In this document: positions 8,405 through 42,100 of the stretch, one piece after another
How the letters are laid out: each line of letters opens with the position of its first letter
Position numbering within the stretch: position 1 is the stretch's first letter
Assembly: GCA_000934665.2 (NCBI GenBank)
Contig: KZ538563.1
Location: 1-61,560, forward strand
DNA length: 61,560 nucleotides
Origin: Catajapyx aquilonaris
Lineage: Eukaryota
Direction of reading: 5' to 3'
Made by a program: the position numbers and the translations under genes
The notes under the pieces: generated by a model
What the model was told of the DNA's origin: nothing
What the model saw: the letters and a program-made list of their open reading frames with translations, nothing else
The model's database searches: none

Positions 8405-11400
8405 ATGTCTGAGAAGCCCCAGGAAGTCAAGAAGAGCCCCCGCCTGGTCCGGCATCCCTCTAATACCAGCTGCACCGATTCCCACAAGATGTCCGAGGCT
8501 TTGAAGAGAATTCCATCTGAGAAGGATCCATTCAAGGTGGTGCGCTTGTCGTGCATTGCAAGGGGGGGGAGTGGCTTGCTGAGCTTGTCATCGTGAGTTC
8601 ATGAAATTATGCATGATCATACTATTCTTCCTGCCTTGCAAAGTTCCTGTCTTGACATATCATGACTCTGTAACAGCTTGATCCGCCACAAGTTACCTAA
8701 CTGGAACCTGGCGCAGCTCACCTACGATGAGTTTCACGGTGCCATATCCGAGTTTGGACTGACTGCTGAGGTGAGTCGCCAGCTCTTTGACGCCTGTATC
8801 ATGGAGAAGGAAGATCCTGAGAAGACAGCCCCAGAGAAGGACGATTCTGAGAAGGCAGCCCCAGAGAAGGACGATTCTGAGAAGGCAGCCCCAGAGAAGG
8901 AAGATCCTGAGAAGGCAGCCCTAGAGAAGGAAGATCCTGAGAAGGCAGCCGGAGAGAAGGCAGCTTCTGAGAAGCCAGCTGTGATGAGGATGCCTGTTTT
9001 TCTTGATAAAGTTCGGGTGAGTAGTAGTAGCAGATACTTATTGAATGATACATATTGCATAGGTTTCCATGGTCACATCCCCTTTTGACCAAGTGGTGTT
9101 AAGTCTAAACTAGATATTTACATGCCAGATTCCATCAATATCACTCTTAACAAGTATGCAGACAATGCGTCAGCAACTCCTTGGAACCGGTGTACACACT
9201 GGCCAAGGAACCAGGTGGAACCGGCTTGGAACCGGGTGGAACCTCCTGGTTCCAGGATCTGGTGTACACTTTTTTGGGGAGTTGCTAACCCCTTGTATGC
9301 AGATGATTAAGATTCCAACTTGGAATGCCTGTGTGTTATATAGTGTATATGTACTACAAGGTGTTAATCTGCCCACGTTTACAAACCTCATATGCTAGTT
9401 GATGGATTTGTTATTTAAAGTCGTGCCTTGTTCTTCGAACTTAACCCTTTGAGGCCTACGTGCATCATATGATGTCCCATCATACTTTCCCGCAGGGCCT
9501 ACTTGCATATGATGTTTTTAGATTTGCCTCGTAATTCTTCATATGCAGAGGGCAGCAGTGACTTGTAAACTGCTCAGACTGCCATCTCGTGGATGGTATC
9601 TCAACTGCCAATCATTTGGCTTGCACTAATGGGGTAAAAAATGGCCGTACTTGTGCACAGTGCTCCTGCCTGAGATGGCCTGACAACTTGGGACACTTTT
9701 CAAGTGCCACTCACCAATTTTCTTGAAATTCGGTGCATTGGTAGCCCACCCGAAGGGATGAAAAACGCACTTAAAGTTATGTGCTCAAAATCTCTGTGAC
9801 CCATTTTTGAGGGGGGCAGAGGTCAATGCATTGAATTTCAAGAAAATCAGTGAGTGGCACTTGGAAAGTGTCCCTTAGTGAGTCGAGGGGTTGTTCACTA
9901 AGGGTAATCCAGGTAGCCCAGTGGTAATCCGGGTAGTTCGAGGCAGCAGAATCGGGAGAAGCTGGCCAAGAACGAAATATGAGAACTTTCTTTGCGACAA
10001 TACAGGAGGATCTTATCACAATAGAAAATGTCCAACCTATCAGACTGCCGAATATCTTCAACGTGGGTTCCTTTGTTACACCACAATAACGTGTCAAACA
10101 TGGCTTCCTGTATCACAGGCAAAAGTAGCACCAAATAATATTTCATTGATTACGCAAAGTGCGATAGGGAATGTACAGAAACATATGTGACAACATTATA
10201 AGTATTGTGACCGAAGCAGTAGTGGTGGAGTGGATATGCTATCCTACTGCTAATCGGGAGGTCCTGGGTTCGAGTCCCGGAGGCCGGCGATCCTGACCGT
10301 GGTTTTCTGTGGTTACCCACGGTCCCCACAGGAGAATTCCGTGATTGCTTCCTAAATAATAGGCCACAGCCGCTTCCTTCCTTTCCTATCCTTGTCCCGT
10401 CCATGAGGAGGTCGAGGTGTGGTGTCGGTGGGGGGTTTGTGACCCGCATCTAGGGGGGTCATCTTGGCGAATGGACCCCCTGAGGGACTGCACACGACCC
10501 CCAACTTGATGACATTGCACATGCACCAGTGTCCCCCCCTCATTATCCCTAACCTGTCCCCTGCACCTAATGGTGGTATTCCACTCCCCTAAGAGGGCCT
10601 AGGGCCCTAGCACGGGGGTTCCAAAATAATTAAATAAATAAATAACATTAAGTATTGTGGGCTCTTTCTGTCCAATATTATGATATTTTTAAATCTTCCA
10701 TTATAAAGGCACAAAAAATTCAGAAGATAGCGATAATTTAAAAGTGACATTTTCACACAAAGTTAGGCCTACAGTCCTTTCGCCGCGTCTCTCCGCGACT
10801 TTTTGGTCAGTGGGTGATAGCCAATGTTATGATTGAGCTTGCTCAGGCAAAAAGTATTGCACATATCTTAGCTCTTGCTCGCTACGATTACGGATCTGCA
10901 ACCAAAAGAGATGGCAGAAGATCTGCGGTTCAATTGTGACCTGGGAAGTGCATGAATTTTCGAAATTGCCATTCAAGGAGCACATTTCGATAGAATGTGC
11001 ATGTGAATGAGTCATTGGAAGAACATGGCGGCCGTGAATCCAATATACAGTAAAACTTCTATAAGTCGAATCTCCATGGGGCCGGAAAAAAACTTCGAGT
11101 TATAGAAGATTCAAGTGAGAGAAGTTCGGATTTTTTTGAAGCACAGAAGAAGAACTCTATAAGGAAGCCTACCTTTTATATCCAGCGACAAAAGGTGTTC
11201 AAAACTTAAAAATAACTGTCAGTATCACACTTGCAATGTTCCTCATTGTTTTGCTGTAAAAAATCTGTTATGGACATTACCTATACTCTTAGATTCAAGG
11301 ATTCAATTGTCACAATCCAGTCAAACTCTTCTTTATGTACGTCTGGTAGATGGACATCAGGAAATTGAGCCTTTCTGTACATGTGGCCTCCTCTCGACCT

Positions 11401-20869: not shown

Positions 20870-21750
20870 CCAGAGACAAAGCCCCACTTTTTGCAGAGAA
20901 TTTCGCTATTAAATTCCCCTGCAGAATTACTCGTAGGAATTTATTTTACTTATGGACATTGTCTGGACAATCAAAATCTCCTCTCAAAGTTGGGGACACT
21001 GTCACCCTTTTCCGAATCCTAGTTTGGCACTAATTAATTCCCAAAGATCACCCTGCATTTTGAACCCATACGGTTACAGTCAGCCAGACCTCTCTCGTCC
21101 AGAGATTTGCAGGGATATTCCCTATTTAATTCTTCAGTAAAATAACCGTGGGCATTTATAGCAAATGCGGTCGTCTTCAGAACATTTGAAATCTCCTCTC
21201 AATGACGACGGCACTGTCACACACATACAACCCCTAGTTTTGCCGCAATTAATTCCCATAGGTCACTCTGCATTCTGGACCCAGACGGTTACAGTCAAGC
21301 AGACCTCTCTTGTCCAGCGCTTTTTGTCAAGATATTAGCTATTTAATTCCCCCGTAAATTGGCCGCCCGGTATGTAATACTAAATTGGACATCGTCGGGA
21401 CAGTCGAAATCTCCTCTCGACGACGGGAGCATTGTCACCCTCCTCTGATCTCTAGTTTGGATGCCATTAATTCCCAAATGTCAACATGCACCCCTGGACC
21501 CATACGGTTACAGCCTGCCAGACCTCTCTCGTCCAGAGACTAAGTCCCACTTTTTGCTGATATATTTCCTATTTAATTCCCCCGTAAAATAACCTGTGGA
21601 TATTTATTTATTTGCGGACGTCGTCGGAACAATTGAAATCTCCTATCGACGACGGGGGCACTGTCACCCTCCTCCAACCTCTAGTTTGGCCGCAATTGAT
21701 TCCCAAATGTCACCGTGCACATCTGGACCCACTCCCCTATACAGCCTAGC
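20870..21750. repeat. Degenerate tandem array, ~4 units of ~215-230 bp
   Basis: The motif aaatctcctc...ctgtcac...ctagtttgg...aattccca recurs at ~20973, 21189, 21407 and 21637. Confidence 0.8.
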
Positions 21751-21886: not shown

Positions 21887-22987
21887 GGGTGTGGGTCATT
21901 TCACCGACACCCACCCGGCCGAAAGGCCATTTCACCGACAAGCCATTTGACCAACAAGGAGGTTCCCCGACAGGGCGTTTCACCGACAGTCATTTGATCG
22001 TCAAATTTACCCACACAATTCCGATATGAAAACCATCCAGTCACTGGAGAGACGGGGTCCAGATCACACCTCATTTTCGCAGCGCCCCTTATGGAAGGAA
22101 CCACGACAGACGCCGGTTTATTACTACATAGTTCTAACTCCTATTTTGAGAAAAAGTGACGTAAGAGATGCACCTACTTCTAACTCCATCGGCCTATCCA
22201 AAAAACTAGTCAGGATGCATTTCGCCGGTTTATTACAGCATAGTTCTAACTCCAAGTAGTGACTTAAGAGGTGCAACTCCACATTGCCACTTTTCGTTAG
22301 TGTTATGAAGTTCTAACTCGGGAGTTAGACTTTTGTGATTCTGAAAAAATTCAAATTAGGTGATTTAAAAGGTTCTAACTCCACCATTGTTGCTGCTGTT
22401 ACAGACAACGACAATGACATTGGCACAGTGAAACACAAAATATGAGTAGTGTATGTAAGCCACAGTATTGCAAAAATTAACTCATTACGTTTGAATGTTC
22501 ATGGTCTAATTGTTGTACTGTGCAAACTTTGGATTCAAATATCTCCGCTTCATCAAAAGTGGAGTTAGAACTATGTAGTAATGAACCGGCGTGATGTCTC
22601 CCATTTCTATAAAATCTGAACGGAATATACATTTCCAATTACATTGCACGAATGAAATACCTGTAGTCAGACACCTGGACAACAACTGCTTACCGGGGAA
22701 GCTGCAGGTGACTGATTCGCTAAAAGATATTCTCGTGGGACACGTGAAAATGAGGTGTGATCTGGACCCCGTCTCTCCAGTGACTGGATGGTTTTCATAT
22801 TGGAATTGTGTGGGTAAATTTGTTGATCAAATGACTGTCGGTGAAACGCCCTGTCGGGGAACCTCCTTGTCGGTGAAATGGCTTGTCGTTGGAATGGGTA
22901 TGTTGGTGAAATGGCTTGTCGGTGGAATGGGTATATCGGTGAAATGGCCTGTCGGCCAGGTGGGTGTCGGTGAAATGACCCTCTCCA
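21887..22987. mobile_element. Mutator/foldback-like non-autonomous element with a nested TIR element at 22110-22592
   Basis: ~190-240-bp TIRs built of catttcaccgaca subrepeats; 9-bp TSD gtctactgc (21878-21886 / 22988-22996). Confidence 0.8.
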
Positions 22988-23404
22988 GTCTACTGCTCTT
23001 CCTGCCTCGTGCCGTTGCCAAGCTCATGCCCTGCCTGCTCGAGTACCCCCCTTGTCGCCCATCTTGGATTCGACTTCAGCGCCTCTACAGGCCATGGGTC
23101 TCGCGAATTGGGTCCTAATGTTCTCAATGGTTATTTGTCGTTATTTTTGTCAATATTTTAGAACTATAATTTTTTTCTCGTTTCTTATTGGGAAAATGTT
23201 CAGAAAATGAAATAGGAACTGACATTGCGTTACTCCATTCTTCTCAGGTCTCAGGAGGATATAATAGAAACCTGTTCAGCATGGAAATGTTCTGCAGAAC
23301 AGCTTGACACCATAAGAGACAGGTTTCAACACATAAACAATTTATAACAACATCCAATTTATTTTTCCCAAAGTTTTACTGCACAGCCAAATTCCATGAA
23401 AGAT

Positions 23405-23900
23405 TCATGTAACAAAATTAATCAAAACAGGATCATGTCCAGTATAATTCAGAAACTTCTGTAGACCATCTGGAGTTACACCAGTTGTAGCCTCATTAGT
23501 CAGGGGATGAAAGTATATAGTCTCAAAATCATTACCAAGGAGCTGTGAGTCACACAAGAATTTTACCCGCCTCTCCTTGTCATTGGCAAGGGAAAATGCT
23601 GTGACACACCCTTGCTTCACACCTAAAGTTTGGAACAAAATGTCCTCTCCAGCAAATCGAAGTTCCTTGGCCTTAATAATTTCACCTATGTCATTTAAAT
23701 TAACCTTACGGTCATGTTTGACTGACAATAGATATAAATTCTTTTGCTTATCCTTCAGGAAGAGGTTCTTGGTATGGGCACCTGGTAAATGATGTACATA
23801 CTTCATCATGGCTTCAACTGTGTGTACTTCTGGATGCTCTGTGGTCACACACTGCACACCTAAGTCCAGAAGCAATTGCATCAAAGTTTTCTTGGTGAAA
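23405..23900 (-). other. ProXp-ala/PrdX (YbaK/INS superfamily, PRORSD1-like) domain within the last AIMP2 exon
   Basis: EHPEVHTVEAMM, GAHTKNLFLKDK (conserved Lys), LRFA, LGVKQGCVTAF, YFHPLTNEAT and TGHDPVLINF match recalled PrdX/PRORSD1 motifs across the full domain. Confidence 0.9.
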
Positions 23901-25222
23901 AGGACATTTCTATCACCATTCTCACCCACTTCAATCTCTACAGACCTCACGAACCTCATGAACCACTTATGTACATTTCGATAACAATTCACAGGATATT
24001 GTGGCATGGCAGACCACATCACAACATCGGCAATAGATACCTTTTCCCCTGCCAACCAATCTGCATGGGCAAGACGGTTCTCAAGTGCCCTTATTACTGC
24101 TGCCTGTTGCACACGGTTTCCATGAATGAGAGATGAATGGGCCAGATCCAGCCATAGGTCAACTTCTGCCACACTTGCTTCATCCTGCTGCTCGTAGTTG
24201 TATGGTGCAGACATGAGGCGTGACAAAAATCGTGCTATATTAGCTTCACCTTCAATAGCCACCTCCTTTGAGGAACTTGCTAGTAGGGAAACATCTCGCA
24301 GACCTGGAATAAAAATAAAAAGATCATATCTCATTCTGTAGAATATGCATGCAAAGAACTTACCTCTTTTATATATCAACGTCAGTGCTACCTGGCACAT
24401 GCTTCTATCTTTGTCCCCGACCTTCATTGAATTAAAATTGGGAATCAATCTGCAGTATTTATCCACAGAAGAATGCACATGAGAGCGTGCATACACATGG
24501 AGTCCACACTCCTTCATCCAATTCCGTAAAACAATCAATGAGTATGGTGGATGATCTGGATCACAGGTGATCACCAAGTCATGGATCACCCCTCCCTAAA
24601 GAAAGGTTCAGTTACACAACTTGTAAAAGCAAAATAGCTTTTGAATCACTGAAACCTGTACCTGGCTTTCCAATTTCACAGCCCCTGACATTTCTTTTGA
24701 GATGAGGTGTGGTTGTTCAATGGGCTTTGTGGTAGCTGGCAATTGATGGTTCTCAATGTGAAACTTCAATTGCTCAATGTGAGACTTTAGCTTCTTAAGC
24801 TTTCTCAATACATCCTCCTGCTGCTTAGTTAGTTCCTCGTAACTCTCCCAATCTTCCCTCTGAAAGTAATCATTTGTCGATACATAAGGAACTCCTAAAT
24901 ACACGACAAAATCAATGATGAAATAATTACAGCATGCGTACATGTAAATAACCCTTGTCAACCTATACATGCAGCCCAACTACCCTGAAACTCAGCCAAA
25001 TTTCTCAAGCCACACCTCTGACCAAAAATAAACCCAAAACTTGCCAACCCCTAGTCAGCTGTGCTGTTTTTTCTGTCCACCTGTTTACGGTACCGTGCTC
25101 ACCTCCTCCGGCGTCATCTTCAAGACCTCAGGTTCTACGCCCTGTAGCTGTGGAAGCTTGTACATGACCGTCGGCAGTTCTAACTGCTGGGGCAGCACAA
25201 ATACGGGCGGTAGTTTGTACAT
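23405..25222 (-). CDS. AIMP2: AIMP2 (multisynthetase complex scaffold p38) fused to a C-terminal ProXp-ala/PrdX deacylase domain, ~482 aa; exons 25222-25103, 24859-24662, 24595-24364, 24303-23405
   Basis: N-terminal MYKLP...ELPTVMYKLP (LysRS-binding motifs), coiled coil, DLVITCDPDHPPYSL, IEGEANIARFL, and a GST-C region WLAGEKVSIADVVMWS, followed by the PrdX domain. GT-AG junctions have matching phases (0,0,1). AATAAA lies on the minus strand at 23363-23358. Intron 1 may hide an extra small exon. Confidence 0.9.
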
Positions 25223-26104
25223 ATTTGTAACAATGCCCAAGCCGCGCCGGCTGCTCTCCGATGACGTATGATGCAAGTACTCACGGTAATGACGGTAACT
25301 CACGTCTTGTCAGGGTTGCCAACTGTACACAAGCTCGTACAATGAGTTGTGCATTTATCCTACACACATATTAATCCTAAATTACTTTTAAAATATTTAA
25401 GCAATAATCGCATTAAAATTGTACGGAAATTCTAACTGTCACATCCCTCTGCCGGCCCGCGCTTGCACTATTTAGTCCAGCACTTCCCTCTGGCGGACCG
25501 CTCTCGTATTATCCTCCCCCATTCTACCCAACCTGCTCTTCCCCCCTTTCCACCTTACCTCCCCCATTCGGAAACGAGCTTCAGTTGGCTTTCCCCCAAT
25601 GTTAAACCCTATGTGCTCGTCTCATATCCGTCCCGCCCCGTGTTGGCCCCGTGTGGAATTGCCCAGTGGGTGAAATTACTGCATATGTAAGCCATATAAG
25701 GTGAGTAAAAGTGAGAGTGGGGGGCGGTGGGGGAGGGGGAGCCCGTAGGCCTGGATGAAGCGTCATGGCTGCCAGGGCGGGGGCCAATCAGAAGGGCCGA
25801 TACATCTAATACTAGGTGTGCAACAGTATGGAATCGGGGCTGTATTATTAAGCGGGGTAGTATAGCCATTAGGGGACGGGCCATATCAGACGTTGGGGGC
25901 AACAATAGCCAGCTGAAGGGGGGGGAGTCGTGTGGACAGTGTTGTCGTATCTCATTGCCGTTTTGGCTCCCAACCCCTCCCCTCCCCCTGATGTGTGAAC
26001 GTATAGTGTGGGGGATGATCCCCCAGTCTACCGTCACGTGACCATTTTTGGCGCAAATGTATCCTGAAATGTGACTTGTTTACATGCAGTGAGGTGTTGA
26101 AGAC
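25223..26104. promoter_or_regulatory. Probable bidirectional promoter and 5' UTR region between AIMP2 and BPTF
   Basis: Divergent ATGs are 882 bp apart, and the interval is GC-rich and free of TEs. GC boxes ~25721 and ~25775, CCAAT 25784, palindromic GTCACGTGAC 26033-26042, E2F-like TTTGGCGC ~26047. Possible UTR intron 25701-26088. Confidence 0.6.
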
Positions 26105-27107
26105 ATGTCTACCAGGGCTTCACGCCGGAAGGGCCGGCCACCCAAGACACCGTCCACACCGGAACAGCCAAAGAAGTTTCAGGTGCATTTGCTAAAGAAG
26201 CCAAAGTACCTGCAGGACAAGGAGAAGTACCCGGAGGTGCGGGTGAGGCAGAGCAGGTCGGTGTCAAGGACGTCCTCACCTGGCGGGAGCGAAGACAGTC
26301 GGAGGACACGTCGCCTGCCACCACCGAGGAAGAGTCGGGCCCGAGGGAATGCGCGGTCAGCATTCAAGAAACGCGGCTACAATCCTGACGCAGTTGATGA
26401 CAAAGAATCGGAATTCCTCTATGGATCGGACTTTGGTGAATCGGAAACGAGCCAGAGTGAGGCTGTTTCAGAGGTGGAGGCGGAGAAGTCTTCTACCGAG
26501 GCTGACAACTCCAGTGACTCAGACTTTTCCCTTTCGAGCTATCGGTCGGTGCCTGCAGCAGCCCGTAGGCCCCAGCTCCGCCCACCCACCCCACTGCCAA
26601 TCTGGCTGCAAGATATCACAGTACCCCCGATGGGACTTCCCCGCTCTTCGGATGACCTCCTAATACCTCGTCAGCATGTGATGCAGACCCTAAGTGTGTA
26701 TGAGGTGATGCGGCACTACCGTGTGTTGTTGCGGTTGAGCCCGTTCAGGTTTGAGGACATGTGTGCAGCTCTAGTGGCCGAGGAAATGAGTATGCTCCTG
26801 GCCGAGATGCATATGGTGTTGCTAAAGACTTTGCTTCGAGAGGAGGATGCTCAGCAGACGATGTTTGGCCCATTTGATCACAAGGATAGTGTGAACATTG
26901 TTTACTTCTGCATTGACACTATTACGTGGCCAGAGGTATTACGTGCATATATGGAGAGTGACCGAGGCTTCAGTCGGGAGGCACTCAGAATCCTCAGCAC
27001 AACGGAGTACCCATTTACAACATTTGAAAATCGGTTAGCAGTGCTCCAGTTCTTGACTGATCAAGTTCTCATCTCAAGCCCAATCCGGGAGGATATGACT
27101 AATGAAG
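26105..27107 (+). CDS. BPTF: BPTF coding exon 1 (AT-hook, acidic region, DDT, WHIM1)
   Basis: ORF 26105-27139 up to the donor GAAG|gtaag at 27108. Confidence 0.93.
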
Positions 27108-30100
27108 GTAAGAAAGTTTTTCTTCAGATCTATTGCTGAGTTAGGGCATGGAGCATTTCAAAAATATGTTGAACGATTGTAATATTTTTTACATGTGTGA
27201 GTAGTTTTGTCAAAATGTTGACTTCTGAGTGTCAGTCACACCTGGAGCACTTTTGTTGCTGATGAATATCAATTTTGTCTCTACCTAGACAGATGTATCT
27301 GCAAGAGTGTCAAAAGTCTTATAAATGGTGCGAGAAGTCTCATTTTGTTGCATACAGTTATGTGGCCAGCCAGAGCAACATTACTGGTATCCTGACATGG
27401 CTACCTGGGGCACAGGAAAATACTGCCTGTGTGCAAGCCAGTGAATATTAGAGATTAGTGGGATAGACTGACCGTAGAGGTGCCTGAAAAATATCTAAAA
27501 TACCATATATCTAAATTGCATTTCATAATTTGCTGGTTTCTTTGTGATATCTGTTGCGGGATATTTTTCCATCCAACTGCCACAATTTTTGGTTGATGTT
27601 ATTCCTAATGGCAGCTAAAAAAAATTAACTCAGTTTTGATATATTTTTACAGCATTGCAAAAAATTGCATTTGAAATTGGCATTTTTTCATTTTTTTTCT
27701 CCACATGAAAATCACGACAGGTGTGTTACGAACATGGATAATAACACTGATCTGCATTTTTTGACTTTTTTTCTGTTGTTTTGAAATAAACAGGTGTATC
27801 CGAACTGATTTTCTCTGCAGATTACGAAAATGACATTGAAAATCTCCTCCCACGTCAAGTTTTCGAGTTACAGGGTGTGTCATAAATTCATGTGGGTATG
27901 TCCACATGTCCAGCGTGTGACGTGGATGGAGTTGACCTACAGCAATGTCCTTACACCACATTGTTGTGAGACTCATCCTTGTTACTACCACCAAGTTTGA
28001 TTCCGATTGCATCATTCCACTGGGAGTTATGCACCTCAGAAGGTGTAAAAGTGTGGGTCGGAGATGCATATTGGTGAACTTGCGGGCATCAAATAAAATC
28101 ATAATTTTGTAATTAATCGAGATAACATTAATTGTGACATTGTACAAAAGAGTAGGTGGCGATGCTCTATCATACGCCATCATCAAATAAAGTGCACGAC
28201 AATTCAAGATGAATCAGGAGCGTTGGGAAGAGACCCCCACCCATGCACAAAAGGCAAGTTATCGGGAAGGCGCAACGTACGCGGTGGGCTGCCCCCCCCC
28301 CCCCNNNNNNNNNNNNNNNNNNNNNNCGGTGGGCCCCCCCCCCCCCCCCCGCGCAATATGGTCGACATCTATATGCCAGAAAAAATTGTAATCGCCGGAT
28401 CTTCAAAACTCAGCAAAGGTCATCTCTGTATGTGTTACCGTTTTTGAATAAAAAAATACGCGCCATGACTTTTGACTCAACCCTCGTATGCAACACTACA
28501 CATTTTGTGCATGGGTGGGGGTCTCTTCCAAACGCTCCTGATCCATCTTGAATTGTCGTGCACTTTATTTGATGGCGTATGATAGAGCATCGCCACCTAC
28601 TCTTCGTACAATATCACAATTAATGTTATCTCGATTAATTACATATTTATGATTTTATTTGATGCCCGCAAGTTCACCAATATGCATCTCCGACCCACAC
28701 TTTTACACCTTCTGAGGTGCATAACTCCCAGTGGAATGATGCAATCGGAATCAAACTTGGTGGTAGTAACAAGGATGAGTCTCACAACAATGTGGTGTAA
28801 GGACATTGCTGTAGGTCAACTCCATCCACGTCACACGCTGGACATGTGGACATACCTACATGAATTTATGACACACCCTGTAACTCGAAAACTTCACGTG
28901 GTGGAAGATTTTCAATGTCATTTTCATAATCTGCAGAGAAAATCCGTTCAGATAGACATCCATTTCAAAACAACAAAACCTTACGTATTAGTGTAATTGT
29001 TTAATTTTTCAGGTACCGGTACTGGTAGATTATGATTGAATTTTTGAGCTCTCAGTTTTGTTCATTAAAACTGGAATCAATGATATTGGGGTGTCCGAAG
29101 TCATGGCTTTTTGTTGATTACCCCATTTGAAGGGACTTGTACAATACTGGAAAAAATAGCCCGTAATCCTTACAAGCAGCACCAAGTGGCCATGCAAGCA
29201 GACGCAAGTTGATTCATGCACTCTTCCACTTGCACCTGCTTGCGTGGCCGTTTGGAGCTGCTTGCAGGCATACAAGGCAATTTTTTTCGAGTTGTGTACC
29301 TGTGTTACCAGTGTTTTGAAATAGCTTACACATATTTTAGTGAACTGTTGGCAAGTCTAAAAATCATGTCATTTACCATGATTTGAATAGTAAAATAAAG
29401 AATCTGTTACGTTCCTAGCACTTCCTGTGGTGATTTTCGAGTGGAAAAATAGCAGGATAGCAAATTTTAAATGCAGCTTTTATCAGTAACTGGAATAGGT
29501 GGTATAAACTACGTTACACGGTTCGTCTGACATTATTAGGAACAACTTCCTCAAGATACAGTGTATTGTGATGGTCTGGGGAAAAAATTACATGATTCAG
29601 ACCCTTTTCCCACTAATTATGGGTCTGTGTCTCCCAAAATAGCAATGAAGTTTGGGTTGTAACCAATCACAAAGAGGATTACAATATGTTACTATGGTGA
29701 TTGTCAAACATCTACTACAATCTTGGAAATATACAAACTAGACTTTGCTTTTAATAATAATTTAAGCTCACATCCATATCTACAAGAATGTTGCACACAA
29801 GTCTTGTTGGCACCCTGACAGTTGTGCACAGGGATGCACAATCATTTCTTCTCATGGTCTCATATTTTTTTGGGTCAACTTAGAATTAGTAGTGCCAACT
29901 TGAGGCAGGGGCAGCCATGACATTTCAATGTGAGCAAACTTATAAAACATGCAGTATGTTTAGGGGCCTACCCTTTTTGGCAGGGGTACAATTATCACTT
30001 TATTTAATTATTGATATCACAGTGTAGGTCCTTGTCAACCATATAGTGTAAGATCCTTGCCATATTAAAAAAATTGTTCACATCCAGAATTTAAAATAAT

Positions 30101-33100
30101 GTGTATTGCTGAGTTGCCACATTTGGAGCACATCTGCATTTGCTTTTACTATTATTGCAGTCATATCATCCCAACCATCCCATAGATCAATATTAGGTCA
30201 TTACGACTCGAGGGCTATCATTGCAACTCATGTAAGGAGAAGTGGGGCAATCTCTTACAGCATTTGTTTTAAAATTGTTCCCTGCCATCAGGTTGGCATG
30301 ACATGTTGCACTAAATTGTCCTGCTATATGTGCCACGACAGGAATCGTTTTACGAGGGTGGTTCAGTAAATAACCTTATAAGTTGATTTACAAATTTATA
30401 TTATACATCATTTGAACTATTCTTGCTTTAGGTTGTACGGCCATTCGTGTAGTAGGTATGGAGTGTTTCAGATCCACCAAGTGACACCAGGTAGTCACGT
30501 GACAGCTATTTGAAGATGGGCGGTCTCGCTGGAGGTGTATACCAGAGAAGAGCAGCGGTTTCCTTGCCAGTGAAGATGTGAAACCCACAGACATTCACCA
30601 TCGGATGAAGGCACAGTATGGTAGTACCTGCATATCACTAGAGCAGGTGTGTGAATGGGCCAAGAAGTTCGCAGGAGGCTTGACAAGTGTGCTGGACACC
30701 CGACGACCTGGTAGCCCGCACACTGCTGTTACGGACGAGACTGTAGCGGCCTCAGATGAGCTTATTCGTCAAGACCGACGCATCAGTGTGAAAGATGGGA
30801 CTGTTGGGTCAGTTGAGGTCATCATACATGAGGAAGCACCTGAGATACGCAAAAGTGTCGGCCAGACAATTAACACTTGAATTGAAGGAACTGCGTTTCG
30901 ATGCATGTGCAACGCTTCTCAGACGTTATGAGGAGGAAGGAGATGACTTTTTGTGCCATATACTGACTGGCGATGAATGCTGGGTGCATCACTTCCAGCC
31001 GGAAACTAAACGTTCCAGCAAAGAATGGCGACACAGATCTTCCACAAAACCCAACTGCTCTTCTCTGGTGCACACCTCGAGCGGGGCCGCCATCTTCAAA
31101 TAGCTTTCACGTGACTACCTGGTATGATGTGGTGGATCGGAAATTCTCCATACCTACTAAATGAATGGCTGTACCACCTAAAGCAAGAATAGGTCACATA
31201 ATGTATAGTACAAATTTGTAAATCAACTTGTAAGGTTATTTACTGAACCACCACCCCAGTGAGAGGGAGCATGGACTGGGGTGACTGCAAATTATCTCTC
31301 TGAGTGAGTATGAGAGAGTCATATTTAACCACACACGAAACTTTTTTGGTTGTGAGCTGGTGTGATTTTGGTAGCAATCAAGATGTGACAGTTGCACTTG
31401 TTGTCCATATTGCCAACTGCCATTGGCTGTAAACTGTGGGGATGGGTAAAATTGCCCAGGGAAAAATCTGTGATGAACTGCATTTTATCATAACTCTTGT
31501 TTGAGGTTTGACAGGAGAAAAAAGGGTCACTTATGGAATTGCCCTGGTGTGCTGGAGGAAATGGGTGAATACACTACCCTCGATTATGTCAGTGTTCCTG
31601 AACAGAATGTGATAAATGTACAATGTTCTGAAATTTTTTTTTGCACCTCAAGAGTGGCATACTGGTAAAATCAAGGATAACCAGATTGTAGAACATGCAT
31701 ATCTGGTGTCTATCCTGGCACGCTATAATCTCTCTATCTATAAATAAGGAAGTTTGTGAGTTTGGATGTTTGTCCCTTACAGAAATCCAGGGGAAGGCCC
31801 CTACACCGCCTTAAATTAGCATATCGGGGGTTACATTTTCCAAGGAATCTAATGCCGCATCTTTCAGCTTCTGAAAATGAACCTAACTCCCACAACACGT
31901 ATGTTCCCGAATCTTCTCTCTTCTCGGGCCTCAACAATTAACTTACATAAAATTCAAATAACAATATATCAATTCACATTCCCATGGAAATGCCTTTATG
32001 CAAAAAAAACCATTGCCGTATATTCAACGCATCCACCAATTACGCTAATTGGCCACCTCACGTGAGTTCGTATCGTATGGTCATTCTGGGATTTTGTGGG
32101 ATTTGAAACTAGACTAAATATATAATAATACAATAATAAATACAATAAAATAATACAGTATTTACAAAATAATATTACTCCGTGTTGAAAACAAATTTCC
32201 CACCATGCATCTGTACGTACATTTCTAAAGTTCTTCAGAGCAAACATATGTAATGAGGTGGGGGTGTGAAGTGGGGTGGGGGTGGGGGGGTCAAGGGGTT
32301 AAAAATGCAGGGGGGAAAACACGTGACTGTGCGGTCTTTTCCTGGGCCAACCATCCACATACCTCTTTTTACACATCCAATCAGAATATCTGTGTCGACT
32401 ATACGCTATTAAGACAAGCAGGTAATCTATCACAGATAGTGACAAACTTTGGCTTATTGCAACGTATAGGGCCTATTTTAAGACATATCGAGTTTCGAGT
32501 GTATGGAAGGGAAATTTTTACAAACACACACACACTTCCTAAAATACTGTGTATGTACCCCTACCTTTACCAGCACCCCAACATACCCGGGCAACGCTGG
32601 GTAACCTGCTAGTTAATAATAAGGCGGGCCAGTTGGGCTTAGTTTTGCATAGCCATGATATTAAGTCAATGCCAAGTTTTTCTCAAAATTGGTAGAGGTT
32701 GGGAAATATTCCTCCAAAAGTGATCAAGGTGGCATGGGTTTAACCTATATGTAGGGCACAGTGGTCCATGAGGCACAGTGGTCCATGAGGCACAGTGGTC
32801 CATGAGGCACAGTGGTCCTTCTATTTTAAAGATATAAGAAACCAGAATAGCATCTTCATCTAGTACCTCGTGAAACAAGTCACTATTGTGCATCTTGCCA
32901 ACATGACGGCCACCTGTGAGATGCCTGCGATCCTACTTTATCAGGTGAAAGCTACTTGAAGGGTAGGGAGGTAACTTCTAACCCACAGTTTAAATGCCAT
33001 GTCAGCCATAGGTGCTGGGCAAGATCCCGATGTAAAAATGTTGTTGAATATTGTCATCCTTTGTCCATAAATACTGGAAATTTGGAAAGCGTCATTTGCA

Positions 33101-36100
33101 AAGGAAGCTGTGATTCATAACATCATGTCAGTTGCTGCCCTCTGGGGCACAGTGCTCCATGGACCAGTGAGCATCTCATTGGACAACCATGCCCTCTTTT
33201 GCCTCTGTAGAGTTATTAATGTCATCATAGGTTTATATGCTAATGGTTTTGACAGACACTAGTATGAAATAAGTTCATGTGCCGAAGGATGTGGCAGGAC
33301 AAGGTCTATATTCCGGAGAGAAACGATGTTTCCGGAGAGAAATGATGTTTCACTCATGTCCACAGGTTGCTGTAACAGAAGTCCCCCTTTCTTATTTTCT
33401 ATTTATTTAGAGGGGTTAGATGTACGATAATAAATAGTATAATTATACTTCATGTGAATTAGGGGCCCCAATCACTTCCGGACCACTGCGCCCCAGGCAT
33501 CGGGGTACAGTGGTCCATTTGCATAAGGCGGCTTCTAAAAAAAATTAAGCCAAAGGGATGGCATTGCCTGTGAATATATTAGTGACATATATTACCAATG
33601 AGTACCTCCACCATGCTGGAAAATATTGGGTGTGTAGATATAACAGGAACTCTTATGAAAATTCAAGTGTACGTAAGTGGACCACTCTGCCCCACTGGTC
33701 TCCCCTACTTTACAAGTGTTGAAATTCACATTTTTGGAGTGATAGTGTTTGCTTGATTTACCAAATGAAAGTATACCTTTCTGAGTCCCCCTAAAGGGGC
33801 TCTGCCCCAACAATGGGGTTACTTAAATAAAATAAAATAAATAAAATATACCATTCTGATAGTCATTACTGACCATGGCAGTGGCAAGTGACCTTTGTTA
33901 CAATAAGAAAACGTTCAGTGGACAAACACCAGTGCATAACGGTAAATTTTGTCTGTTAGGAATTGTCTCAAGATCTTGAATCTCATTCCATTGTACCTTT
34001 TGTCACTCTCTTCTAATTTACCTGTGCAACCCTTGCTTGTATGCCCATTGATATACCTTAATTTAGGCTACATCCATTTCATTCAGTGGCAAATGAATCA
34101 ATATTTTATGAGGGCCATACTAAAATGAATTACACTATTTTTTTGCCACTAACACAGGACCCATGCAGGTTGGCAGATAGGCACGCATTATCAATAGAAT
34201 CCTTCTGGAGCGGAATGCACTGGCACCAAGGGTGTGTCAACCTCTCCAGGCCCTCCATGAATCACTTTTTGATGTTGGGGTGCACCCACTGCCAGACAAC
34301 TGCTTGCAGTCAACGTTGTCCTTGAAATGGCATTGGTGAAATTTTGTCATGGCTCCGAACAGCTGAAAGTCACTGGGAGCCAGGTCTGGGAAGTACGGCA
34401 GGTGTGGATGCACCCGAAGAAGGATCCATGAAAAAATCCCTCAGCCGAAGCCATTTCGAGGACATTGTTGACTGTGAGCAGTTGTCCAGGAGTGGGTGGC
34501 CTCCACCTCCAAAAAGTGGTTCCTGGAGGGCCTGGAGAGGTTGCCACACCCGTGATGCCAGTGCATTAGGCTCCAGGAGGATTCTGTTGATAATGTGTGC
34601 CTATCTGCCAACCTGCAAGGATCCTGTATTTGGGGCAAAAAAGTAAAGTGTAAATCATTTTAGTATGGCCCTCGTGACCTCAACATTTTTTTAAATGCCA
34701 GGGTAAAGGGAGCTCAAGTTACCCAAATAATTCAAAGGACTGAGACATTTATTTTCCTGTTAGTGAGGATCTAATGGAAAGGAAGGTACAGTAATTCAAA
34801 TCTCTCTATTGGCAGCTAAGACCCAGTATGATGACCATTGCCGAGTGTGTCAGCGCTTGGGGAGCCTAGTGTGCTGTGAAACTTGCACTGGCGTGTACCA
34901 CCTTCACTGCATCTCTCCTGCACTGACAGAAGTTCCTGAAGATGATTGGCAGTGTGGTATATGCCAAGCACATGAGGTAAGGAAAAATTTAAATTCTAAC
35001 TCTTCAAGTTTTAGTCTTGTTGTTCCATATTTACAGTAGTTTCTGATGTGTGGCATGTCCTGGCTGTCAAGTGGTCTCATGGTGTAAAAGGCAGCACTCT
35101 GGATTTCTTGATCCAGCGGTCCGGGTTCGATTCTCGGTGGGACCTTATACAGCCTTGACTTCTGTGTACAAGTGTTGGCCTGAATGTTGAAAATTCCTGT
35201 GTTAATTTTCTGCATAACTGGATTGCTATAATTCAGCATGCTTTCATTCATTACAGAAATTCTATTAGTTGAGGTTTCATTTTATTGCTGAGGAGTGTTT
35301 AAATGAAATGTACATGTAAAAAATATTACTTATATATGATGTGTGGCTATGGTGCCGTGGTCCCATGATGCCGGAGTTAGCATTTTGGATTGTTCAAGTC
35401 CAGCAGTCTGTTTTCAAAGGTCTTAGGGACTTGCCAGCAAAAATAGTTATAATTTTCCATGCGCACTGAGTAGATCATGTATAGTAGGAATCCGATCATA
35501 ATAAACTTCTGAAAAAGTGGAAGGGTTGTAAATTGCAACAGTGCAAGGTTTAGGACCGGACGGGAAAGAGGAGGGTCACTCTCAGATTAGGACGACCGGG
35601 TCCTCGCCTCGGGCTTGTACCAGCTGGGGAAGTGAGGCTCCGAAAATAAGCTGATGAATTTTTTATGGGTGACTCTTTTTGCATTTTTGACAGCAAATAT
35701 GAATTCTAAGGTGTCGAAAACCTATATTTTCATACTTGATTCGTATCAGGCATGTCACAAATAGGCCACGTGCATGTAAAGAAAAACTTGATGTGCAGAT
35801 GAAAGAATTTCATTTCGCAACTGCACCGTCTATATTTGGACTCAAATATCACTGGACAGGGAGGGGTGGGAGGGGAGGGGGAGAGAGTGTCATTTACTCA
35901 TTTTTGAAACCTCTTCAGTAGGCCATAGCGGGGCAAGTATATAGCATGTTCGCACTGGTCTCTTCCTAATTTTGTGAAAATGGCTGAAGATCTGCCAACA
36001 ACTCCAAAACGGAAGTCTCCCTTTTTAGTGGTTGGCAGAGGTAGAAAACTGAACAGTAGTGCCATTTCGATGGCAAAAAATGTGCACCAGTACGTGAGTG

Positions 36101-39100
36101 ACGTTGTGAAAAATAGGGGTGATTTGCCTAGTGCAAACATTATCGGAGAAGTTTCCGAAGCAACGGGAATAAGTCGGATTACTGTGCGAAAGGCCCTAGC
36201 TGTGGATATGAAAAGATACAGTACACCAACAAAAGCAAAGGTTTTTAAAACCAAGTATGCATTTGATGCAATTGATGACTTCACGCTACGCTGGACTATT
36301 TATACCATGTATAATCAAAAGAACGAGTGCCCTACCAGCAAGACAGTACTTGACGAAATGAAGAGAATCACCAAGGATACGGACAATCCCTTTCCCTACA
36401 CAAGTAAATCGACAGTGGCGAGGCTGATGAAGTCCATGGGATTCAAGTACAAGCGGAGTGAACGAAAAAGTGCCAGGGCTGAATCCCTGGAAATTGTGGC
36501 ATGGAGGTACAGGTACATCAGGGAAATAAGGAAGTTGAGGGCCGATGGCTACAAAGACATTTACTTGGACGAAACTTGGTATGACACACATACTTGTAAA
36601 ATGAAAAACTGGACTGATGATACAGAAAACTGCGCCATACAAATCCCTGGTGGAAAAGGAGACAGGATCGTGATTTTGCATTGCGGTGGTCGGAATGGTT
36701 TCGTAGAAGAAGCCATGTTTGTCACACACAAACAAATGGCAGACGCACCTGCGGATTACCATGGAACTATGAATTCTGGAATATTTGAAGAGTGGTTCGA
36801 AGAAAAGTTACTTAAGAGACTCGATCATCCATCCGCCATCGTAATGGACAATGCATCCTACCATTCGCGCGTGCTAAACCCGAAGCCCAGTATGGCATGG
36901 AGGAAGGACAGGTTAGTGGAATACATGGTGAAAAACAACATTCCTCAGCCGGAAATTAAAACCAAAGAAGAGATGATGTTGGCAATTAAGCGTCAACCAT
37001 GCTACTATCTCAAGAGCCATGCAGTGGATGAGTTGGCAGCTCAGTATGGCCACGTTGTGGTCAGGCTCGCCCCCTACCACTGCATATTAAACCCGATTGA
37101 GATGATATGGTCTCAAATCAAAAGAAGAGTTGCTGCTCACAATATTCGCCAGCAACCGCGGGACAGTGTCGTGCGTTTTTTGGAAGAGAGCATGAGTTTA
37201 GTGACATCTACACAGTGTCAAAACTATGTCTCACACGTTGAAGACATTGAAGATGACTACTTAAAATTACAACCTGCCGACGACGATGCCCCTCGCCTTC
37301 AATTTATCGTCACGGAAAGTGACGATTCCGATTCATCCGACAGGTCTAGTGACGATGAATGAAGGTAAGAATAATACAATATTCTCCGAAATTTTGGAAC
37401 TATCTCGGATTTCTCAAATACTCTGTAAAAAGTATATAACTTAGACGGTGCAATTGCGAAATGAAATTCTTTCATCTGCACATCAAGTTTTTCTTTACAT
37501 GCACGTGGCCTATTTGTGACATGCCTGATACGAATCAAGTATGAAAATATAGGTTTTCGACACCTTAGAATTCATATTTGCTGTCAAAAATGCAAAAAGA
37601 GTCACCCATAAAAAATTCATCAGCTTATTTTCGGAGCCTCACTTCCCCAGCTGGTACAAGCCCGAGGCGAGGACCCGGTCGTCCTAATCTGAGAGTGACC
37701 CTCCTCTTTCCCGTCCGGTCCTAAACCTTGCACTGTTGCAATTTACAACCCTTCCACTTTTTCAAAAGTTTATTATGATCTGATTCCTACTATAGCAGTT
37801 TGGCATTGTTTTTACAATATTCGTTACATTGAAATTTTGATGGTGTGTTTCTGGATGCTTGTAGTTATTACATATGATATCTACACGTCTTTCTGTATAG
37901 TCAACTCGTCACCAGCAGAAAATGATAGATGATCAAGATTATTGACAGCTTATTTATTTATTTTTTTAAATTTATTTTACCCCGTGCTGGGCCATATTGA
38001 CAGCTAATGCATAACATATGTAACAGATAGAAGAACTGAAAGCCAGGTTCCTAATCTTCCTATCCATGCCAAATATCCTTAATTGCATACAACTTGATAC
38101 TAGGTTTTACAGATGGGCCAAAATTTGCAGACTAATGCAGTAATTGTTATTTTTAAAGTCCTAATATTGTGCACATGTTGGAAAAAGATCAGTGTTGCCT
38201 ACTGTCAAGGTTATGTGTGCATCGATCAGTCATACTACTAATCGGCTATGTCTGTCTGTCTGGGGTGAGTCATCACCTCAACCTGTCCATGTAGTACCAT
38301 TATCCCATGCATAGGTGGTGCATCTTTCCTCTTACCGCACATGCCAGCACGTTTGCTGAGTCAGAACTGCACCAGCTCCCACTGTTGGGATTGTAACTAA
38401 CAAATGATTTTTAAGACGCCTTCCATTTAATTTCCTATATGGGCTAAAAATCGCAGATTACTAAGTATGGCAAAGCCGCAGGAGATCCACTACAGGCATT
38501 TGTTTTGCTAATTCCATGGATTCCATCCTTTATTATGGGCTCCTATGCCCCGTGGATCTTTACCATGCAGAAAGCATTTGTCACCAAAAAGGTTGTTTTC
38601 ATGGAAGTTGTTTCATTTTTTCACATTTTGTGATATTTATTTTCAGTTTTTCCAAATTTTGATGATTGTTTCACCAATAGTAATAGATACTACCAGCAGC
38701 TGGATGATCAGGGCCTTCAGGCAATACCCATTTTATGTTTATAAGCTTTGAGAATCTCATCAACATCATAAAAATGTTATACAATGAAATCTGACACTGG
38801 TTTTGATCTATTAACCCCTTCGCTACCAGCTAGGCCGAAAACGCCTAGATTTTCAATTACGCGTATTGTGAAGATCAGGACAAGACATTTTACAAAAAAA
38901 TAACATCTATACTTTACCTGTTCAGGGAAAACACCATAAATGTGTTGGGAACTATTTTACTCCTCGAGAAGTCCCTAAATTAATTTCCAAAAAGATGGGT
39001 GTTAAAACCTGAAATTCAAGTACTACCGGCCAACTGCTATGCCATCGCCTAGGTTTCCGCTTACACGTAGTCTGAAGATAACGGCAAGATATTTGATAAA

Positions 39101-42100
39101 TAGTAACAGTTATACTTACACGTTCATGCTCTTCACTATGAATGTCTATGTAACAATTTTCCTTGTCTAGAAGTCACAATTAATTTACAAAAAGATGCTG
39201 TAAAAACTCAACATTCAAGTACTACTGGCCAACTATTAGGCCGATTTAATTATGAAATACATTAAAACACACAGGGCATGTACCTTGAGAACAGTGCCAG
39301 ATGAATTTGCTGAAATTAAATTAATTCTGATCTGCGACTTTCTGGCATTTTGGACAACTACCAAATTTATTTATTTCTTGTGAAGTACGGCGATTTCAGC
39401 GTATTTGTCTGGCACGGTTCTCAAGGTAGATGGTCTGTATGTTTTAATGTATTTCATAATTAAATCATCCTAACAGTTGGCCGGTAGTACTTGGATTTTG
39501 AGTTTTTACAGTGATATTTTTGAAAATTAATTGAGTGACTTCTAGACAAGGGAAATAGTTCCAAATTAATTCATAGCGAAGAGCATGAACGTGTAAGTAT
39601 ATCTCTTATTATTTGTAAAATATATTTTCATTATCTTCAGAGTATGCGTAATCGAAAATCTAGACGCTTTCGGCCTAGCTCTGGTTTCCAACCGATGGGT
39701 CGCGGGAGCCTTGAGTCAACTTTTGTTGGTTTTTGCTATTTATGCGCAATAATGAATAATTAAAAATTTAAAATGAGTGAACACTGTGTACGAGTTTTAT
39801 GTCTGAGCCGTGGTTTGAGCCATAGTTCGCCGAGAGAAATGTAGCACCGTTCGGCCTCACGCTCTCCTCTATCCGCGGAAGCCCCGCTGCAGAGCCAATC
39901 TAGCTGCACTTACATTTGAAGGAAAGAAACTATCCAGGAGAAACCGATACAATTATTAAAAATTACTTTGTGTTAGCTGGCATATTTTGCGGCTATGGTT
40001 GAGGAGCTGAATGTGCTCAATGCTTCTCTGCAAGGGGTCAAATCAAGGGAAAAAATTACATCGCATAAAAAAATGATGCAAGCTTACTTAAATGATGTAA
40101 GCTTACTTATTTGTTCATCAAAACTGGAACTCAGGCTGGCAAGAAAAAAGTGGATCGATCTTCATTTGAAATGTTTCATTGTCTGCAAGAGTAATTTAGC
40201 AAGGACAGTGGTGCAGAATTCAAGAGCGAGTCACCTCCACACTTTTTGCAAACACTAAAGGAGGGTTTCGAGAAATATTTCGGACATAGCAGAGGTCGAG
40301 TAGGTTCGAAATCTCTTTAGCCAGTTTTCAAGGGAAAAACTGTCTACTTATGAAAGAGAGCAGTTCATTGATTTACTCTGCGATCGCACATTGAAAGATA
40401 AATTTCAAGATGGAGAATTGATGAAGTTCTGGATGGATGTGCAGGGATTAATAATGGGTGCAGGAGTAAAAATATGTTATCACGTGTCTTAGGGAACTTA
40501 ATTTCTTATCACGAAATGTTAATCTCGAAAAACGCGCGCAATGATTTGGCCTTTAAATGGTACCACACTCGACACGATTGCATTAAAATTGTGGACACAC
40601 GGCCTCAGAAATGTGTACGATTATCTCACGATTCCTTCCCCAATGTTAATCAAATTGACATTTTGGGAACGCCATTTTCCATTCATTTCAACTCGCCGTG
40701 AAGATCATTTCTTGGGCGAAAATGGAAAAAAGACAAACTAGGTCCTTAGAGCCAAACAAGAGGCCAAATCGTCAAGTTTTCTTTCGTGCAATTTCTGTGT
40801 CAATTGCACCATTATTGCGGCCGTACAGAGTGTATGTTTTCTGGAGGGGGAGGGGGGGGTTGCTCATTTATGGACATGCACATTTATGGACACATGTTTA
40901 GGGGGTCACAGTTGGTGTAGGGTTGGAAACCACTGGCCTAACTGGTAGCAAAGAGGTTAATGGGGGAAAGATGTTCTGGTGCCTTGCTTTGCCTTGCTTT
41001 TCAGGGATGATTGGAAATACTGGCATTTTTAGTGGTGAAACTGGTTGATTTTATTTCCCACTATGAGTTGTCAAGACATGAAGATTGCTGTGCCCCTTTT
41101 AATTTTTAAAATGTTTACTTGCAGCTTCCAGGTGTGAGTGATTGTGTAGCTCCGCTAGAGAAGTCCGGCTTAATGTGTCGACAAGAAACCCTTGGTTTTG
41201 ATCGCCATGGTAGAAAGTATTGGTTTCTATGCCGCAGAATATTTGTGTAAGTAAGAAAACCCTTCCTCTACTACATGTGTGTTCTTCTTCAGAGAATTTT
41301 CACCATCCTGAAAGTGTTCATTTTTAACTCTTACTTCAAATTTCACTTTAATATTACTACTGTGATTCCATACCAGCTGAGCCAAATTTGGATTGTTTGG
41401 GAGCTTGCCCCTGTGAGATTTTGATGGGGGGGTTATCTGAGTAAGTGTGTCAAGACAGCTATCAGATTTCCCTGCCTAAGATATTCTTCAGTCAAAAGTT
41501 GCATATAAGGTGTGTTGCAAGTACATGGTCATCAAGAAAGATTTCATGGATTTGATATAATATAATATATTACCCCGTTATCAGCCTTTTTCGGCTCTTT
41601 AGGGGGGATTTTTGTTTTGTCTGGAACTCTTGCTTACGTGTTTACTTTTTGCTTTTTGGGATAGGATAGGGAAGGAAGGAGGCGGCTGTGGCCTTTTTAA
41701 TTAGGAAGCAACCCCGGAATTCTCCTGGAGGGACCGTGGGAAACCACAGAAAACCACAGTTAGAGTTGCCGGCCCCGGGGCTCGAACCCAGGACCTCCCG
41801 ATTAGCAGTCGGACCCTATAGCAGTGTAGCCACTCCGCCAAACTGCTTTGGTTGAGATTGCATGGATTTTAAAACCCTATAACTCAAAAACTTGTAGACA
41901 TATCTAAATTATTTAAGTTTTGAAATGTTAAGAAATGTGTGAAGTTTCGGTCTTACCTTCATATGTTTCGGTCTTACCTTAGTATGTTTCGATACAGTCA
42001 TTGACCACTTTCGACTATTGTTAATTACATGCAAGATGGATAAACACAGTATGGTGGCCAAACTCCCTTGATACGGTAGAATGCTGAAGTTGGTCCAGCC

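Follow-up and report, generated by a model that had tools for sequence, protein, structure and literature searches.

AIMP2 has been described as a non-enzymatic scaffold, and the mammalian and Drosophila proteins (AIMP2/p38) combine an N-terminus of the LysRS-binding type with a thioredoxin-like and a GST_C domain and end after the GST-like domain. The N-terminal motif of AIMP2 binds LysRS and its leucine zipper binds AIMP1. Free-standing ProXp-ala, known from animals (8huz) and Caulobacter crescentus (5vxb/1vjf), is a lone protein of ~170 amino acids, and the human enzyme is stated not to assemble with the multisynthetase complex (PMC9425024). Recruitment of ProXp-ala to prolyl-tRNA synthetase (ProRS) or to the complex is already known: Plasmodium, Toxoplasma and kinetoplastids have ProXp-ala-ProRS fusions, and plant ProXp-ala carries an appended C-terminal interaction domain and is described as a member of the plant complex (PMC9425024), so that ProXp-ala is partnered there by the synthetase or by a domain peculiar to plants. 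In Trypanosoma brucei, the multisynthetase-complex subunit MCP3 is ProXp-ala-like and deacylates Ala-tRNAPro, and its housing in the complex has been argued to limit promiscuous deacylation (PMC11286415). Here we analyze a gene of Catajapyx aquilonaris (assembly GCA_000934665.2, contig KZ538563.1, positions 1-61,560, hereafter the window) in which AIMP2 runs on past its GST-like domain into a ProXp-ala editing domain. Fusion to the scaffold of the complex itself is the new element; the likeness to MCP3 is a functional analogy only, since MCP3 is a subunit in its own right, has an N-terminal extension for dimerisation and belongs to a complex without AIMP2.

The AIMP2-ProXp-ala gene occupies positions 25222-23405 of the minus strand and consists of four exons, with a coding sequence of 1449 nt made up of 482 codons and a TGA stop codon (23405-23407), which predicts a product of ~54 kDa. 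The start ATG lies at 25222-25220, within an exon 1 of 40 codons (25103-25222), and is followed by intron 1 (24860-25102, 243 nt), exon 2 of 66 codons (24662-24859), intron 2 (24596-24661, 66 nt), exon 3 (24364-24595), intron 3 (24304-24363, 60 nt, phase 1) and exon 4, which starts at 24303. All three introns are of the GT..AG type with a pyrimidine tract before each AG. Exon 4 is a single open frame that passes from the remainder of the AIMP2 GST-like domain (23948-24303, ending in KWFMRF) through a linker of ~15 residues, RSVEIEVGENGDRNV (23903-23947), into the editing domain (23408-23902, residues ~318-482 of the protein). An AATAAA polyadenylation signal is located 41 nt past the stop (23358-23363), and no other AATAAA or ATTAAA was present in the 255 nt checked 3' of the stop. 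There is no N inside the gene, all N runs of the window falling elsewhere. Thus, everything that the initial annotation had said at the level of the sequence, from the coordinates and the stop-free last exon to the linker and the lone AATAAA, was borne out.

Exon-by-exon comparison with Pfam identified a thioredoxin-like domain followed by a GST_C-type domain, the order found in AIMP2/p38, with both domains above their cut-offs. Thioredoxin_16 (PF18569) matched exon 3 at about 24368-24589 (E 1.4e-16, 60.8 bits against a cut-off of 26.5), and GST_C matched the first half of exon 4 at 23948-24115 (E 1.8e-6, 28.6 bits against 20.7). In a sequence search of solved structures the first half of the exon-4 product retrieved human AIMP2 chains (E 3e-14), and Foldseek likewise returned the AIMP2 chains 5a34_B (the EPRS-AIMP2 GST complex, E 4.6e-6) and 6iy6_C (DRS-AIMP2). 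Exon 1 encodes a putative AIMP2 LysRS-binding motif (MYKLP...LPTVMYKLP), which is also present in crustacean homologues, and the doubled MYKLP...LPTxMYK pattern resembles that of homologues that reach AIMP2_LysRS_bd (PF16780) in precomputed lists; the 40-residue exon alone scored 20.5 bits against this family (E 4.2e-4), below the cut-off of 27. Exon 2 yielded no Pfam family above cut-off. It encodes a charged, heptad-like segment at what is probably the place of the AIMP2 leucine zipper, and it matches the LE.RQ..L.RL..LK segment of the homologues by position only, the exon not being part of those alignments. Of the four domains that the initial annotation had expected from a scan of the spliced protein, the thioredoxin-like, GST_C and tRNA-editing domains were therefore recovered above threshold and the LysRS-binding domain fell short of it.

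The second half of exon 4 matched the entire length of tRNA_edit (PF04073, profile positions 1-123) at 23453-23836, with an E value of 2.6e-28 and 99 bits against a cut-off of 25.5. By sequence, its closest solved structures were PRORSD1 (8huz, 8e-43), C. crescentus ProXp-ala (5vxb, 5e-32) and Atu3699 (3e-26). Foldseek placed 8huz, 1vjf and 1vki first, at TMt 0.90-0.91 and 36-47% identity (8huz_B, TMt 0.90, 47%), with the YbaK/ProX types 1dbu, 2dxa and 2z0k far behind (TMt 0.74-0.78, 15-21% identity) and ProRS INS structures at 12-16% identity. The editing domain is thus nearer to ProXp-ala than to YbaK-type proteins, ProXp-x or the ProRS INS domain, and it shares with the free-standing enzymes the fold, at TMt 0.90 and 39-47% identity, and the equivalents of K45, H130 and GXXXA. 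These features are the published basis for calling a ProXp-ala (K45, H130 and GXXXP/A in C. crescentus numbering; 10.1101/2020.09.11.293571). By HMMER alignment to 5vxb, the signature Lys (HTKNLF) is residue 362 of the 482-residue protein (codon 23768-23770), the GXXXP/A loop reads GCVTA at residues 415-419 (23597-23611), and the signature His (FHPL) is residue 449 (codon 23507-23509). In an alignment of 61 sequences, comprising the Catajapyx protein and 60 proteins that contain both PF18569 and PF04073, the Lys and the Asn that follows it, the His and the Pro that follows it, and the Gly of the loop were identical throughout (61/61), and the last position of the loop was Ala or Pro in 58. The completeness of the domain, part of the initial annotation, and the integrity of its signature residues therefore stand on Pfam, the 5vxb alignment, the 61-sequence alignment and Foldseek alike.

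The junction between the two halves was also recovered in spliced form. A public run, X1, which contained 66% of the words sampled from the region and whose kind is not on record, yielded a contig of 1419 nt that aligned in four pieces (25295-25103, 24859-24661, 24594-24362 and 24301-23508) with no differing letters. The contig omits exactly 243, 66 and 60 nt, the omitted segments having ends that read CT..AC on the plus strand and hence GT..AG on the gene strand, and is unbroken over the junction of the AIMP2 and editing parts (23903-23947). Because a contig without mismatches skips exactly three introns, an intron-less fused form exists in run X1. The initial annotation had proposed RNA-seq or long reads spanning 23880-23990, and this contig is continuous there. 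Its 5' end sets a minimum extent for the 5' untranslated region (25223-25295), 73 nt that contain no ATG upstream of 25222. At the other end it stops at 23508, ~100 nt short of the stop codon, and X1 contigs gave no cover at 23343-23504 (a stretch that includes the last ~100 nt of the coding sequence) or at 24882-25043 (within intron 1); these gaps are given no weight. A first alternative is an assembly error or a gene model that merges two genes. The initial annotation had dismissed a merged gene model, and we give either artefact a negligible probability: the junction falls within one exon that contains no N and is bridged by the mismatch-free contig, and many independent assemblies and transcriptomes show this join as well. 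Considered on their own, the statements about the gene and its domains are, in our judgement, close to certain.

The linker bears on a second alternative, namely that the product is cleaved at this point or that the two halves are translated separately, the fusion then amounting to mere co-expression. An AlphaFold2 model of the exon-4 product, built from 42 aligned sequences, had a mean pLDDT of 92, and only linker residues 124-130 fell below 50; its pTM of 0.62 is as expected from two domains without a fixed mutual orientation. The model thus predicts two confident domains on a flexible linker. Such predicted disorder would suit a cleavage site. So would the variable spacing between two conserved anchors, a Trp in the GST part and the HP motif in the editing domain: homologues have between 36 and 154 residues there, with Catajapyx (43) and Daphnia (40) near the short end. 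Nevertheless, neither a Met nor a known processing site was seen where the editing domain begins, and one frame has been kept in 60 other proteins from four crustacean classes, which argues that the covalent link is useful. We therefore consider separation of the halves very improbable.

The fusion was found widely among crustaceans. A word-indexed protein search with the exon-4 product listed 120 matches, of which 28 contained PF18569 and PF04073 together, and a search with a profile of nine sequences found the pair in 37 of 71 matches. The public protein sets of 17 named crustacean species, mostly annotated automatically, contain the fusion, as do many unnamed sequences. These species include decapods (Macrobrachium, Palaemon carinicauda, Halocaridina rubra, Panulirus ornatus, Homarus americanus (LOC121864473), Penaeus indicus, P. 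vannamei, P. japonicus, Petrolisthes manimaculis, Eriocheir sinensis and Scylla paramamosain), the stomatopod Oratosquilla oratoria, the euphausiacean Meganyctiphanes norvegica, the thecostracans Amphibalanus amphitrite and Pollicipes, the branchiopod Daphnia galeata and the copepod Neocalanus flemingeri. Models from Homarus, Penaeus, Palaemon, Oratosquilla, Pollicipes, Amphibalanus, Daphnia galeata and Neocalanus flemingeri have the same domain order and signature residues as the Catajapyx protein, but they are only 37-46% identical to its last-exon product, mostly have longer, Lys/Ser-rich linkers and bear automatic names. In the ESM Atlas, the best feature match (score 0.86, to be taken as a lead only) was a cluster of 64 proteins in which every member of known phylum is arthropod, with PF18569 in 100% and PF04073 in 98% of the members. 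Stand-alone proteins of ~170 amino acids were present among the listed matches of the word-indexed search from a sea spider, an annelid, two nemerteans, a brachiopod and a cnidarian. An exhaustive HMMER search of 1.84 billion representatives returned no protein that exceeded 45% identity to the exon-4 product, and the source lineage is therefore unsampled in those protein collections.

The suggestion in the initial annotation that this architecture might not have been seen before is accordingly not supported in that form. The same fusion is present in 17 named crustaceans and in the 64-protein Atlas cluster; what stands is that no paper describing an AIMP2-ProXp-ala fusion was found in the literature searched, a body of text that most subscription journals lie outside. 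A survey of ProXp-ala states that the protein is absent from arthropods and that insects lack it, and the legend to Figure 8 of the same survey nevertheless lists Arthropoda (10.1101/2020.09.11.293571). The architecture is crustacean-wide and is held in public databases under automatic names, and it appears to have gone unnoticed in the aminoacyl-tRNA synthetase literature that was searched.

Other arrangements of these domains were also encountered. Three proteins of ~293-311 amino acids (P0015, P0041 and P0277) contain the GST_C-like half and the editing domain only and match nearly the whole last exon; they could be incomplete models or genuine relatives shortened at the N-terminus. Five eukaryotic or environmental proteins (P0341, P0361, P0300, P0340 and P0349) combine a GST_C/Arc1p_N-like part with one or two tRNA_edit domains and lack the AIMP2 thioredoxin-like domain, and in P0359 three tRNA_edit stretches come after a WHEP-TRS motif. 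These proteins suggest that fusion of ProXp-ala-type domains with the interaction modules of synthetase complexes has happened on more than one occasion.

The reading that we favor, and regard as probable, is that the protein is a complete AIMP2 scaffold with a flexibly linked C-terminal ProXp-ala and would act as an Ala-tRNAPro deacylase tethered to the multisynthetase complex. The AIMP2 half would join the complex in the manner known for flies and mammals, its GST-like domain pairing with AspRS and with the corresponding domain of EPRS (as the titles of 5a34 and 6iy6 indicate). The tethered domain would then capture, in trans, Ala-tRNAPro that leaves the class II ProRS half of Glu-ProRS, and would hydrolyse it. 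Tethering would raise the local concentration of the deacylase and may restrict its access to Ala-tRNAAla, as has been argued for MCP3. The initial annotation had pictured the deacylase as held beside EPRS; since AIMP2 contacts the N-terminal GST-like domain of EPRS and not the ProRS core, this should be taken to mean the same particle rather than a fixed juxtaposition. A multisynthetase complex has been purified from the crustacean Artemia (PMC4394549).

Several observations weigh against this reading. One is that no record identifies the run behind the spliced contig as RNA. In addition, the residue aligned with R80 of C. crescentus and N86 of the human enzyme, which are reported to read the discriminator base (PMC11286415), is Glu in Catajapyx (Glu-397) and acidic in all nine rows of a nine-sequence alignment; the free-standing enzymes thus differ from the Catajapyx domain at this position as well as in standing alone, and tRNA recognition may therefore differ. 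This residue also speaks for an alternative in which the appended domain does not proofread Ala-tRNAPro, either having other aminoacyl or tRNA substrates or serving mainly as a module that binds tRNA acceptor ends. T. brucei MCP3 alone is reported also to deacylate Ala-tRNAAla (PMC11286415), and human ProXp-ala is reported to have a relaxed amino-acid selectivity. Yet all three ProXp-ala signature features have been kept, and the nearest solved relatives, at 39-47% identity, are Ala-tRNAPro deacylases, whereas YbaK-type proteins share 15-21%, so that a different function for the domain seems unlikely to us.

Gene models that contain AIMP2 without the editing domain weigh against the same reading from another side. 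Isoform X6 of Homarus LOC121864473 is predicted with PF18569 only, as are the AIMP2 models of Procambarus and Cherax, and in Penaeus japonicus the contig with the fusion locus also bears a second AIMP2-like locus. The fusion therefore need not be the sole AIMP2, or the one that forms the complex. Isopod models look split, with the ProXp-ala (PrdX) domain only in Armadillidium nasatum (P0160) and AIMP2 only in Idotea baltica (P0162). In a tree of PrdX domains, Armadillidium nests in the malacostracan fusion clade with 95/89 support, which fits a split gene model or a secondary fission. On this evidence a separate AIMP2 could serve as the scaffold, with the AIMP2-like part of the fusion being a dimerisation or docking handle, or the fused form being one of several isoforms. 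The Catajapyx gene itself fits this poorly: its product appears to retain the full set of AIMP2 elements, from the N-terminal motif through GST_C, only one AIMP2-like locus and one locus matching either half were found within the 61.5-kb window, and a single exon encodes both the GST-C and the editing parts, so that no simple exon skipping can remove the domain. We judge a scaffold other than the fusion to be still less likely than a change of substrate.

The PrdX tree comprised 37 rows, with 12 of its 34 inner branches open, and, again to the detriment of the favored reading, it did not unite the malacostracan fusion clade, the copepod-like fusion clade and Catajapyx, which branches alone. 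Since the fusion-borne domains are not united and the deep nodes are open, the tree speaks neither for nor against a single origin, which is thus not demonstrated. In the favored reading, the fusion would have arisen when an AIMP2 gene joined a PRORSD1 gene, before the divergence of the sampled crustacean classes. We also considered a stronger form of the tethered-deacylase reading, in which the fusion is the crustacean scaffold itself, predates the split of branchiopods, copepods, barnacles and malacostracans, and clears Ala-tRNAPro where it is made, before it is handed to the elongation factor. Crustaceans hold large free pools of alanine and proline as osmolytes, and such pools might be the reason that the fusion was kept, with insects having lost the module. 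A comparable argument from the alanine pool has been put forward for T. brucei (PMC11286415). We regard this stronger form as possible but tentative.

Rfam and tRNA scans of the window returned nothing bearing on the fusion gene. Head-to-head with the fusion gene is a chromatin-remodelling gene of the NURF301/BPTF type that extends at least over 26093-43290 (+), with a first large exon encoding DDT and WHIM1 (26093-27139), a PHD-finger exon (34767-35036) and a weak WSD match (42961-43290). In a search that excluded proteins of more than 2000 amino acids, the best named matches to its first exon were from insects, at 46-53% identity, and a tree made to place the organism left Catajapyx, with one other sequence, in an unresolved basal position. 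The two genes are separated by ~800 nt (25296-26092), which belong to the 3-kb bin with the highest GC content in the window (0.495) and could form a promoter region used by both. Apparently in an intron of the NURF301-type gene, an uninterrupted open reading frame of 477 amino acids (35929-37362, +) encodes a Tc1/mariner-like DDE_3 transposase with HTH_33. Just past the PHD exon, a tRNA-like element (35073-35145, +) scored 48 bits against the Rfam tRNA model and was given no assignable anticodon by ARAGORN, and it may be a tRNA-derived repeat or a pseudo-tRNA. On the 3' side of the fusion gene, several short X1 contigs match 23100-23265 at 90-95% with loose ends on both sides, a pattern that looks like a dispersed repeat, and a tandem array of 16/33 nt (22836-22977) adjoins this stretch. 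Further tandem repeats have units of 229 nt (3.2 copies, 21018-21731) and 30 nt (5.9 copies, 8804-8980). Pentapeptide and GLTT Pfam matches on open reading frames at 8737-9098 were rejected as spurious because they arise from the 30-nt repeat.

The finding corrects the phyletic picture of ProXp-ala, in that a large animal group encodes ProXp-ala as a part of AIMP2, either exclusively or in addition to other forms. Should the fusion protein reside in the complex, the correction of ProRS errors would be physically built into the multisynthetase complex, and crustaceans would offer a natural system for studying whether aminoacyl-tRNAs are channelled and checked there. The idea of proofreading within the complex thereby becomes directly testable in animals such as Daphnia, shrimp and Artemia.

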